From assembly GCF_000026545.1 (NCBI RefSeq), contig NC_011601.1: DNA of 64,000 nt; one strand, written 5' to 3'. This document shows, in pieces, positions 23,977 through 27,038 of this stretch; position 1 is the stretch's first letter; each line of letters starts with the position of its first letter. The position numbers were made by a program, and so were the translations under genes. The stretch is from Escherichia coli O127:H6 str. E2348/69. GTDB lineage: Bacteria > Pseudomonadota > Gammaproteobacteria > Enterobacterales > Enterobacteriaceae. The notes under the pieces were generated by a model that made no database searches, had not been told where the DNA came from, and saw only the letters and a list, made by a program, of their open reading frames with translations.

Positions 23977-25023
23977 TCAAACCAACAGCGCCAGCCCGCC
24001 GACAATCACACCAGACACTGCCACCATCGCCCCCGTCAGCCATAAGGCTTTCGCCGGAAACGCTTTACGCAACATTATCAGCGACGGCAAACTCACCGCC
24101 GGGAGCGTCATCAACAATGCCAGCGCCGGAGCGGTTCCCATACCTGCCAGCATCATCGTTTGTACAATCGGAATTTCTGCTGCCGTGGGAATGACAAACA
24201 AGCATCCCGCTACCGCTACCGCCATCGCCACCACCCACATCAGGCTGTTATCGACAGCACCATCGGCATGGGGGAATAACCAGACGCGAGCGGCACCCAA
24301 CACCAGTACTGCAAGGATGTAAACCGGGATCGTACTCCAGAAAAGCGTCCATAGCGCCCTGCCCCAGCGGCTAAAAAAACCGCCCTGTGATTCCGGTATG
24401 TCAATTTCGACCGGTGCCTGCGTTTGCGGTGTTTCACGCACCCATTTTTGCACCAGCGTCGCAATCAGCAACACCATCACCAGCCCCGCCACCAGACGAA
24501 TCGCCGCAAAACCCCAGCCGAGGACGAACCCCATAAACACCAGCGTCGCCGGGTTTAACAACGGATTCCCCATCCAGAATGCCAGCGCACCGCCCATCGA
24601 CACCTGTTGGCGACGCATTCCCGCCGCGACCGGAGCCGCACAGCAGGTACACATCATGCCCGGCAGAGAAAACAGCGTTCCCAGCAACGTGCCGCGAAAG
24701 CGCGATTGCCCAAGCGTACGCAACAACCAGTCACGCGGGATCAGCACCTGAATCAACGAACCGAGGATCACCCCCAGCACCGCCGCTTTCCATACCGCGA
24801 GAAAATAGATCATCGCGTAATCCAACGCCGCCTGCCACGGATTAGCATCTGCCTGCGCAAGGATAGATTTACCGATACTGTGGGTTTCGGCAGCAGTAAA
24901 CGCTTTGCCGTAGTAAGGTTGCCATTTCACATACCAGAGACCGGCAATGACAACGAGAAAGAAAAGCGCGGGTTTCCACCACTGAATGGGCGTTGCCGCC
25001 TGAGATGAAGACTGACCAGTCAT
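23977..25023 (-). CDS. yraQ: Putative inner-membrane permease YraQ (about 346 aa)
   Basis: Polytopic translation; gene order. Confidence 0.85.
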   Translation of the reverse strand: MTGQSSSQAATPIQWWKPALFFLVVIAGLWYVKWQPYYGKAFTAAETHSIGKSILAQADANPWQAALDYAMIYFLAVWKAAVLGVILGSLIQVLIPRDWLLRTLGQSRFRGTLLGTLFSLPGMMCTCCAAPVAAGMRRQQVSMGGALAFWMGNPLLNPATLVFMGFVLGWGFAAIRLVAGLVMVLLIATLVQKWVRETPQTQAPVEIDIPESQGGFFSRWGRALWTLFWSTIPVYILAVLVLGAARVWLFPHADGAVDNSLMWVVAMAVAVAGCLFVIPTAAEIPIVQTMMLAGMGTAPALALLMTLPAVSLPSLIMLRKAFPAKALWLTGAMVAVSGVIVGGLALLV

Positions 25024-25095: not shown

Positions 25096-25731
<636 letters not shown>

Positions 25732-25772
25732 ATTGCCTCCCCCCGGTATGTGTACTCATGTTTAACTATAGG

Positions 25773-26195
25773 TTACCGTTGCCAGACCAGTTTTTTACCA
25801 AAGCCCAGCGTGTTGTCGGTGAATTTGATTTCATCGAGCCGGATTTCCCATACCGGGGCCGACAGCATTCTGGCAACCGGAAAGCGACGATTGTACGCCT
25901 TGCGTGCGAGGTCGCTTTCCTCGCCTTCCAGTCTGCGGATCTCACCTTTAAACTGCACGCCGCGAATTAACGCTACCGTTTTCGGCTGACCGTTTACCGT
26001 TCCGGCAATTGCCGCCTGCGGCCCGCTCATCTGCGCATGACGCGTTTTTTCTTCCGTCAAAATGTAGAAGGCGACTTTCTGCGCATCAAAAAGATAAAAA
26101 GCATTGGCGCACCACAGTTCCCCTTCCTGCTGCACACACCAGGTGACAACATGTTGTTTTGCCAGCCAACGGCTGATGGCGGTGAGTGTTTCCAT
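25773..26195 (-). CDS. yhbP: UPF0306 family protein YhbP (140 aa here)
   Basis: Translation [28 protein letters not shown]; may be slightly shorter than the K-12 protein (unverified). Confidence 0.8.
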
Positions 26196-26245: not shown

Positions 26246-26548
26246 ATGACACCCTGGTTTCTTTACTTGATCCGTACCGCCGACAATAAGCTTTATACCG
26301 GGATCACCACGGATGTCGAACGCCGCTATCAGCAGCACCAAAGCGGCAAAGGGGCGAAAGCACTGCGCGGGAAGGGAGAACTAACGCTGGCGTTTTCCGC
26401 ACCAGTGGGCAATCGTTCGCTGGCGTTACGGGCAGAATATCGCGTTAAGCAACTGACCAAACGGCAAAAAGAGCGTCTGGTAGCGGAAGGTGCAGTGTTT
26501 GCAGAACTGTTGAACAGCCTGCAAACCCCGGAGATTAAAAGCGATTGA
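26246..26548 (+). CDS. yhbQ: GIY-YIG nuclease superfamily protein YhbQ (100 aa)
   Basis: Translation [31 protein letters not shown]. Confidence 0.9.
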
Positions 26549-27038
26549 AGTGCTCGTGATACTCAACCAGACCAGTTACACCGTTCAGCGCGTCATCCGC
26601 TAAACGATGTACCTGGAAGGCACTTTCAGTGCCCGGCCAGCGGCAACGCAGATCGTGATGTGCCGCCAGTTCAAAGCCGAAACGGCTGTAAAGCGCCGGA
26701 TCGCCCAGCGTCACCACTGCGGCATAGCCGAACTCATTAAGCGAATCGAGTCCTTCATAGACCAGTTGGCGTGCCAGCCCCTGTCCACGGTATTTTTCAT
26801 CTACCGCCAACGGTGCCATGCCGACCCATTGCAGGTCTTCGCCCTGCACATCAACCGGACTAAATGCCACATAGCCAATGACCTGACCTTCGTCATCTGT
26901 CGCCACCAGCCCCAGCGTCAGAAAGCCATCTTCACGCAGATCGTGAACCAGCTTCGCTTCCGCATCACTTTCGAATGAACGACGCAGCAGGGCATCAATA
27001 CCCGGCGCATCAATGGGAATTTCTACTCGAATTAGCAT
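26535..27038 (-). CDS. yhbS: GNAT-family N-acetyltransferase YhbS (167 aa)
   Basis: Translation; 3' end overlaps yhbQ convergently by 14 nt. Confidence 0.88.

Follow-up and report, generated by a model that had tools for sequence, protein, structure and literature searches.

Absence of yhbO between yraR and yhbP in Escherichia coli E2348/69: a probable old deletion allele shared with other Enterobacteriaceae

Introduction

YhbO belongs to the DJ-1/PfpI family, and its annotated role as a deglycase is debated. The gene is RpoS-dependent in Escherichia coli K-12 and O157:H7, and its product contributes to stress survival (PMC2907692) and has methylglyoxalase activity (PMC11987610).

A closely related, described arrangement is that of K-12. 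In the K-12-like genome used here for comparison (L001), yhbO, a gene of 519 nt, is located between yraR and yhbP on the opposite strand, shares 21 nt with the 3′ end of yhbP, and leaves a divergent intergenic region of 127 nt towards yraR. Two small elements can be seen in this arrangement. The yraR leader of yhbO-positive loci contains a conserved short stem, CAGA-caat-TCTG, just before the ribosome-binding site (L001:2241–2262); in Kosakonia the stem reads GCAGA-ttca-TCTGC, which by eye looks like a compensatory change. A terminator-like hairpin (CGGCTGGTAACCAGCTG with a T-rich tail) is found just after the yhbP stop (L001:2804–2820, minus strand), inside the coding sequence of the opposite-strand yhbO.

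Here, we analyze the same locus in a stretch of 64,000 nucleotides from E. coli O127:H6 str. E2348/69, referred to below as the window, in which yhbO is missing. In the searchable literature, we found no description of this deletion; genome annotations show it implicitly.

Results

Organization of the yraR–yhbP junction

In the window, yraR (25096..25731, minus strand; ATG at 25731–25729) encodes an intact NAD(P)H-binding protein of 211 aa, and yhbP (25773..26195, minus strand; TAA at 25775–25773) encodes a protein of 140 aa. According to the initial annotation, the yraR start at 25731 is only 41 nt away from the yhbP stop at 25773 on the same strand, and these coordinates are exact: the spacer (25732..25772, minus strand) comprises 41 nt. 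The permease gene yraQ (23977..25023, minus strand) follows 72 nt downstream of yraR, and yhbQ (26246..26548, plus strand) diverges from yhbP, with an intergenic region of 50 nt between them. The RefSeq record of E2348/69 is 100% identical to the window and annotates yraQ, yraR, yhbP, and yhbQ without yhbO. The neighborhood is tightly packed, the 3′ ends of yhbQ and yhbS overlapping convergently by 14 nt (26535–26548) and yhbS and yhbT (ubiT) overlapping by 7 nt on the same strand (27032–27038).

The absence of yhbO between yraR and yhbP, also noted in the initial annotation with reference to the opposite-strand gene of K-12, is borne out by the alignment and by homology searches. No YhbO-like sequence was found by tblastn in the 64-kb window (no match below E = 1), and no member of the DJ-1/PfpI/YhbO family (TIGR01382) was found at the locus, the K-12 YhbO scoring 233.6 bits with the same model. 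The flanks are orthologous and collinear with those of yhbO-positive genomes and 97–99% identical to them on either side as far as the junction. On the yraR side, homology between the window and K-12 ends exactly at the ATG, and on the yhbP side it restarts at the Lys codons 135–136. The 41-nt spacer thus replaces about 625 nt of the yhbO-positive genomes (yhbO and the yraR–yhbO intergenic region); gone with yhbO are the divergent yraR/yhbO control region and the seven terminal codons of yhbP. The terminator-like hairpin of K-12 lies in the segment missing from the window, and the stem of the yraR leader is likewise absent from the window spacer. Further downstream, yraQ encodes 348 aa in the window and 346 aa in K-12; a 6-nt indel with clustered mismatches is located inside the gene (24208–24217).

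The suggestion that YhbP is shorter here than in K-12 also proved right, as it has 140 rather than 147 aa, that is, seven residues fewer, with a different stop. It ends in KKLVWQR, whereas the K-12 protein ends in KKMIWLRDSGTEQA (also written GFGKKMIWLRDSGTEQA), so that the altered C-terminal tail is LVWQR in the window and MIWLRDSGTEQA in K-12; alignment to K-12 thus revealed there neither the 41-bp spacing nor an identical YhbP C-terminus. The window YhbP passes the NCBIfam equivalog model NF002900 (260.9 bits against a cut-off of 176) and covers positions 4–143 of the 150 positions of the profile, only the tail being missing. Since the length of YhbP varies in the tail, from 141 to 147 aa among genera, the loss of seven residues is probably neutral. 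The TAA codon of yhbP could have been made by the junction, or it could be an ancestral yhbP stop brought nearer by an in-frame loss.

Distribution of the junction in E. coli

Presence of the junction in complete E. coli genomes was assessed by megablast counts with a 121-nt probe spanning the junction and a separate yhbO probe. The locus was found in 5424 out of 5426 genomes; the yhbO-less junction is present in 106 out of 5426, in all cases with at least 99% identity over the 121 nt, and the yhbO probe matches 5318 genomes, the sum (5318 + 106 = 5424) fitting mutually exclusive sets. The statement that yhbO is lost genome-wide is based on these counts together with the search of the 64-kb window.

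The comparison with K-12 by itself would allow a recent deletion specific to E2348/69, or even an assembly artefact. The probability of this is practically negligible, given that the identical junction is seen in 106 independently assembled complete genomes and that the same type of junction occurs in E. albertii and E. whittamii. The oddity at the level of one strain, implied by the initial annotation, thus gives way to what appears to be an old allele common to these 106 E. coli genomes and to other species.

Carriers of the junction include E2348/69, CFT073, Nissle 1917, ABU 83972, ATCC 25922, LF82, NRG 857C, and MP1, all of which we take to belong to phylogroup B2 (ST15, ST73, ST135). One and the same YhbP (WP_000449449.1) is encoded by every yhbO-less E. 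coli locus that was retrieved. Other strains presumably of phylogroup B2 keep yhbO, among them those of ST131, the allele of locus L004 being identical in EC958, JJ1886, and SE15.

A separate observation concerns yhbO itself, which in E. coli forms two allele classes, the K-12 type and the ST131/B2 type, about 8% apart over nucleotides 171–519 of the gene, the 5′ third of the gene and the flanking genes differing between the classes by at most 3%. This divergence (L001:2530–2878 compared with L003–L005) is as deep as that between Escherichia species.

Junctions in other species and the direction of change

In order to place the junction in a broader context, 80 YhbP loci from GTDB species representatives were scanned. 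Most genera have yhbO in the interval from yhbP to yraR, which measures approximately 600–635 nt, mostly 626 nt. The gene is kept in Salmonella, Enterobacter, Lelliottia, Leclercia, Kosakonia, Pseudescherichia, and Klebsiella indica, as well as in Citrobacter amalonaticus, C. sedlakii, and C. werkmanii. Overall, it occupies the same site in about 50 species from more than 15 genera, with the same orientation, overlapping or abutting the end of yhbP, and the yraR–yhbO intergenic region can be aligned throughout across the yhbO-positive loci. Such constant geometry in most Enterobacteriaceae indicates that the presence of yhbO is ancestral and its absence derived.

The yhbO-less junctions are of several forms. 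Type A is found in E. whittamii and E. albertii, with a 42-nt spacer and a 140-aa YhbP ending in LVWQR, and further E. albertii contigs carry the same adjacency of yhbP and yraR. Types B and B′ are represented by 12 Citrobacter loci, with YhbP of 142 or 146 aa and a spacer of 32–39 nt. In the tight junctions of Yokenella, Trabulsiella, and Enterobacter soli the gap between yhbP and yraR is 3–4 nt, and Klebsiella spallanzanii has a separate junction type with a gap of 90 nt.

An alternative scenario reverses the direction, so that the yhbO-less state would be ancestral and other lineages would have gained yhbO by insertion between yraR and yhbP. It would account for the spacer having no significant similarity to yhbO-positive sequence (see below) and for the tight yhbP–yraR operons of some genera. 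We consider it highly improbable, as the same orientation and geometry of yhbO, with an alignable intergenic region, is seen in about 50 species including Salmonella, Enterobacter, Kosakonia, and Klebsiella indica, and the yhbO-less junctions are of several unrelated kinds, which is what repeated losses would produce.

The tight junction is a second yhbO-less junction shared between genera, being present in Yokenella, two Trabulsiella species, and Enterobacter soli (L061, L063, L066, L085). YhbP there ends in WLRQE (WQRQE in Yokenella), with AGGAG inside the last yhbP codons; the Enterobacter representatives other than E. soli all keep yhbO. The yraQ–yraR–yhbO block as a whole has undergone repeated losses: E. 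albertii (L011, L089–L094) lacks yraQ as well as yhbO, Escherichia sp. MOD1-EC7003 (L009) lacks most of yhbO together with yraR and yraQ, and in Kluyvera species yhbP has neither yhbO nor yraR beside it.

Shared origin of the junctions and extent of the allele

The spacers of types A, B, and B′ can be aligned to one another, and CTATAGTTA directly follows the end of yhbP in 15 out of 15 junctions. Between yhbP and yraR of the yhbO-positive loci, this motif is absent even if one mismatch is allowed, except for CTATCGTTA in two Pseudescherichia loci. Identity at fourfold sites between the window and the yhbO-less Citrobacter is 0.35–0.45, and hence a neutral 9-mer would stay identical with P ~1e-4 per pair. 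From these comparisons we conclude that types A, B, and B′ probably descend from one old deletion.

To delimit the allele, we considered sites that separate yhbO-less from yhbO-positive loci within Escherichia. According to the resulting SNP table, the yhbO-less block comprises about 74 nt (25717..25790, minus strand), consisting of the spacer and the only flanking sites that separate the alleles. On the yraR side, these are 25717, 25719, and 25720, in codons 4–5 (GTT TTA vs. GTA CTG, synonymous), and on the yhbP side 25776, 25780, 25787, and 25790, in the last yhbP codons. Beyond approximately 15 nt on either side, the flanks of CFT073 and LF82 are those of yhbO-positive B2 genomes; the left flank of the window differs from those B2 flanks only at 25573, 25606, and 25624, and these sites do not track the yhbO status.

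Such a pattern would fit an old allele whose flanks were homogenized within lineages, or old transfers that were later trimmed likewise. In the scenario that we propose, the deletion allele would have arisen once from the ancestral yhbO-positive arrangement and then persisted in lineages or moved between them by homologous recombination, and recombination would have made the flanks uniform to within about 15 nt of the junction. A recent introgression with E. whittamii or E. albertii as the donor was considered and rejected, as the flanks are only 90–96% identical and the 3′ half of the spacer differs; with five to seven differences between species in that half, recent transfer is not indicated.

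The same junction might instead have arisen independently in E. coli B2, E. albertii, E. whittamii, and Citrobacter via recurrent site-directed deletion. The region does lose genes often, as exemplified by E. albertii without yraQ and by one Escherichia representative without yhbO, yraR, and yraQ. Independent events, however, would not regenerate the spacer, whose sequence is absent from yhbO-positive genomes; the breakpoints have no direct repeats, and the allele-linked synonymous changes in yraR codons 4–5 are common to three Escherichia species. Recurrent deletion is thus very unlikely, and a single origin is the preferred reading.

Origin of the spacer

Several approaches were applied to relate the spacer to yhbO-positive sequence. 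Pairwise local alignment of the 41 nt yields z ~2.5, with the best match in the yraR-proximal part of the intergenic region; nhmmer with a profile of the 15 spacers finds no match in yhbO-positive loci, and alignment of the spacer to the yhbO-positive profile by hmmalign is uninformative. By eye, the spacer admits two incompatible and about equally good alignments, one to the intergenic region and the other to the sequence just after the yhbP stop.

No direct repeats that could have served as microhomology flank the K-12 segment. One long-range repeat, CGTTGCGCCTG and CGTTACGCCTG, 653 nt apart, does not fit, as deletion between its copies would remove the yraR start. In a check for the scar of a mobile element or a repeat, the junction was seen once per genome, and the Rfam search yielded one sub-threshold chance match, inside yhbP.

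Selection on yraR after the loss of its upstream region

In the window, yraR is devoid of its native upstream region as known from K-12, including the ribosome-binding site and the small conserved stem preceding it. In its place, a Shine–Dalgarno sequence GGAGG (25736..25740, minus strand), 4 nt before the yraR ATG, can be read from the sequence; it differs from the AAGGAG region of K-12 and is common to E. albertii and E. whittamii. Between yhbO-less lineages, dN/dS is 0.014–0.03 for yraR and 0.013–0.065 for yhbP, and such strong purifying selection on both genes implies that yraR is still expressed.

One could suppose that yraR fell silent and has been decaying since its promoter was deleted, as the lost region included the conserved hairpin and the ribosome-binding site. 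This supposition is extremely unlikely: all carriers have an uninterrupted open reading frame, the YraR protein does not differ from that of B2 strains with yhbO, the dN/dS values across yhbO-less species contradict decay, and the new GGAGG site is strong.

A short out-of-frame open reading frame, starting with the ATG at 25759, runs over the yraR start (25729–25759, minus strand). As the spacer of E. albertii and E. whittamii differs in length by one base, this frame is not maintained there relative to yraR, and the reading frame is probably meaningless.

Transcription of yraR

The yhbP and yraR genes are on the same strand, with a short gap and no intrinsic terminator between them, which is the configuration expected of an operon fusion. 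No terminator-like site was found in or near the spacer, and the predicted RNA fold of the spacer region is no more stable than those of shuffled controls (z = 0.19). In Yokenella, Trabulsiella, and Enterobacter soli, the ribosome-binding site of yraR is inside yhbP, and these tight junctions in three genera show, by analogy, that a yhbP–yraR operon would be viable. Given the lack of a terminator and of a stable fold, the GGAGG site, and the viable tight arrangements elsewhere, read-through from the yhbP promoter is our preferred mechanism of yraR expression and its likeliest source, with somewhat better than even chances. Under this mechanism, yraR would be the second gene of a yhbP–yraR(–yraQ) unit, translated from the new GGAGG. 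The yhbP promoter, from which the yhbP–yraR transcript would start, must be located within or next to the 50-nt yhbP–yhbQ intergenic region; a scan with the consensus yielded no sigma-70-like promoter for yhbP. The yraQ gene may belong to the same transcription unit as yraR; a promoter-like site is observed at 25123–25095.

The second candidate is a promoter in the spacer. CCTATAGTTAA (25762..25772, minus strand), beside the yhbP stop, contains a –10-like TATAGT (25770–25765) and is a candidate element of a yraR promoter, with a predicted transcript start at about 25757–25759. We compared it with the sigma-S –10 consensus KCTAYRCTTAA (Weber et al. 2005, in the form quoted in PMC5650638). Against the consensus so quoted, CCTATAGTTAA matches at nine out of 11 positions, a degree of similarity whose frequency is at the chance level (77 matches in the window vs. 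67 expected), and some Citrobacter match at ten out of 11. The features in common are C at –13, T at –12, A at –11, T at –7, and the downstream TAA, whereas G replaces C at –8 and the first position in the window is C rather than K.

If this element were the –10 box, read by sigma-S or sigma-70 without need for a –35 box, yraR might be transcribed mainly from its own promoter. Several observations speak for this possibility: CTATAGTTA is invariant across 15 loci despite near-saturated synonymous sites, three Escherichia species have the initial 19 nt of the spacer in common without any difference (P ~7e-4 against fourfold sites), the nine to ten matches to the quoted consensus include C at –13 and TAA at –6 to –4, and the element is at a constant distance of 38–45 nt from the ATG. 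Yet the consensus matches occur at chance frequency, there is neither a –35 box nor an extended –10/TG element, the motif in Citrobacter overlaps the last codon and the stop codon of yhbP, a possible reason for part of its conservation, and a promoter would not fit into the junctions of Yokenella, Trabulsiella, and Enterobacter soli, where yraR is nonetheless kept. As the main source of yraR transcripts, the spacer promoter is therefore a possible but doubtful candidate.

Read-through and the spacer promoter are not mutually exclusive, and the –10-only promoter could contribute in addition to read-through or instead of it. As for the claim of the initial annotation that any yraR promoter must lie inside yhbP, its premise holds, as the native upstream region of K-12 is gone. 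The necessity does not follow, since co-transcription from the yhbP promoter is the simplest alternative, and the only conserved promoter-like element, TATAGT, is in the spacer. The literature search yielded no usable report of a transcript start for yraR in yhbO-less strains.

Discussion

Combining these data, we read the locus of the window as an old deletion allele of yraR–yhbO–yhbP that would have had a single origin, persisted in lineages or been exchanged between them, and left yraR to be expressed via the yhbP unit; we assign this reading a probability of roughly 0.7. It is ordinary gene loss, that is, a presence/absence polymorphism with operon fusion as its consequence, which has an unusual cross-species history. 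The unusual features are the small junction block, common to species and genera and set in lineage-typical flanks, and the conserved motif at the junction.

A bolder interpretation would regard the yhbO-less 74-nt block as a trans-species structural allele, maintained in, or passed repeatedly between, lineages of Escherichia and Citrobacter amid freely recombining flanks, and carrying its own selected –10 box that restored the expression of yraR once yhbO had been deleted. Together with the two classes of yhbO, it would suggest that a stress gene involved in methylglyoxal detoxification has long been under balancing selection or under selection that depends on the niche. We consider this interpretation speculative and rather unlikely.

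In practical terms, the widely used strains E2348/69, CFT073, Nissle 1917, LF82, and ATCC 25922 are naturally devoid of YhbO, and K-12 data on carbonyl stress or general stress call for a check before they are applied to these strains. The yraR gene provides a compact natural case of a gene kept under selection after the loss of its promoter. The same small deletion allele in different species backgrounds may be useful for studies of recombination tract lengths and of structural polymorphism in Enterobacteriaceae. The general understanding of gene loss is unchanged, as this is a documented case and not a new principle.

Comparison with known systems

Of the arrangements considered, the yraR–yhbO–yhbP locus of K-12 (b3152–b3154) has yraQ, yraR, yhbP, yhbQ, yhbS, and ubiT collinear with those of the window, on the same strands, at about 97% identity. 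The differences are that K-12 has yhbO, the 127-nt divergent control region, and a 147-aa YhbP, whereas the window has the 41-nt spacer, another ribosome-binding site, and a 140-aa YhbP.

The junction of E. albertii and E. whittamii resembles that of the window in the 140-aa YhbP ending in LVWQR, the TAA stop, the following CCTATAGTTAAACATGAGT, then GGAGGCAAT and the ATG, and in the allele-linked synonymous yraR codons GTT TTA. It differs in the spacer, which has 42 nt and five to seven differences in its 3′ half (about 10–15% divergence of the spacer), and in the flanks, which are species-typical and 94–96% (E. whittamii) or about 90% (E. albertii) identical to the window.

In the yhbO-less junction of Citrobacter (the freundii complex and others), yraR likewise starts 32–39 nt after yhbP, and CTATAGTTA is present at the yhbP end, but YhbP has 142 aa (ending in WLRDL) or 146 aa (ending in WLREQAGVL), the TAG within the CTATAGTTA motif serves as the yhbP stop, and the remaining spacer has diverged.

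Finally, as in the general class of operon fusions by deletion, two same-strand genes are joined without an intervening terminator, and the downstream gene loses its native promoter. The window differs from this class in that its allele appears to be old and cross-species rather than of laboratory or recent origin, and in that co-transcription is here a predicted consequence.
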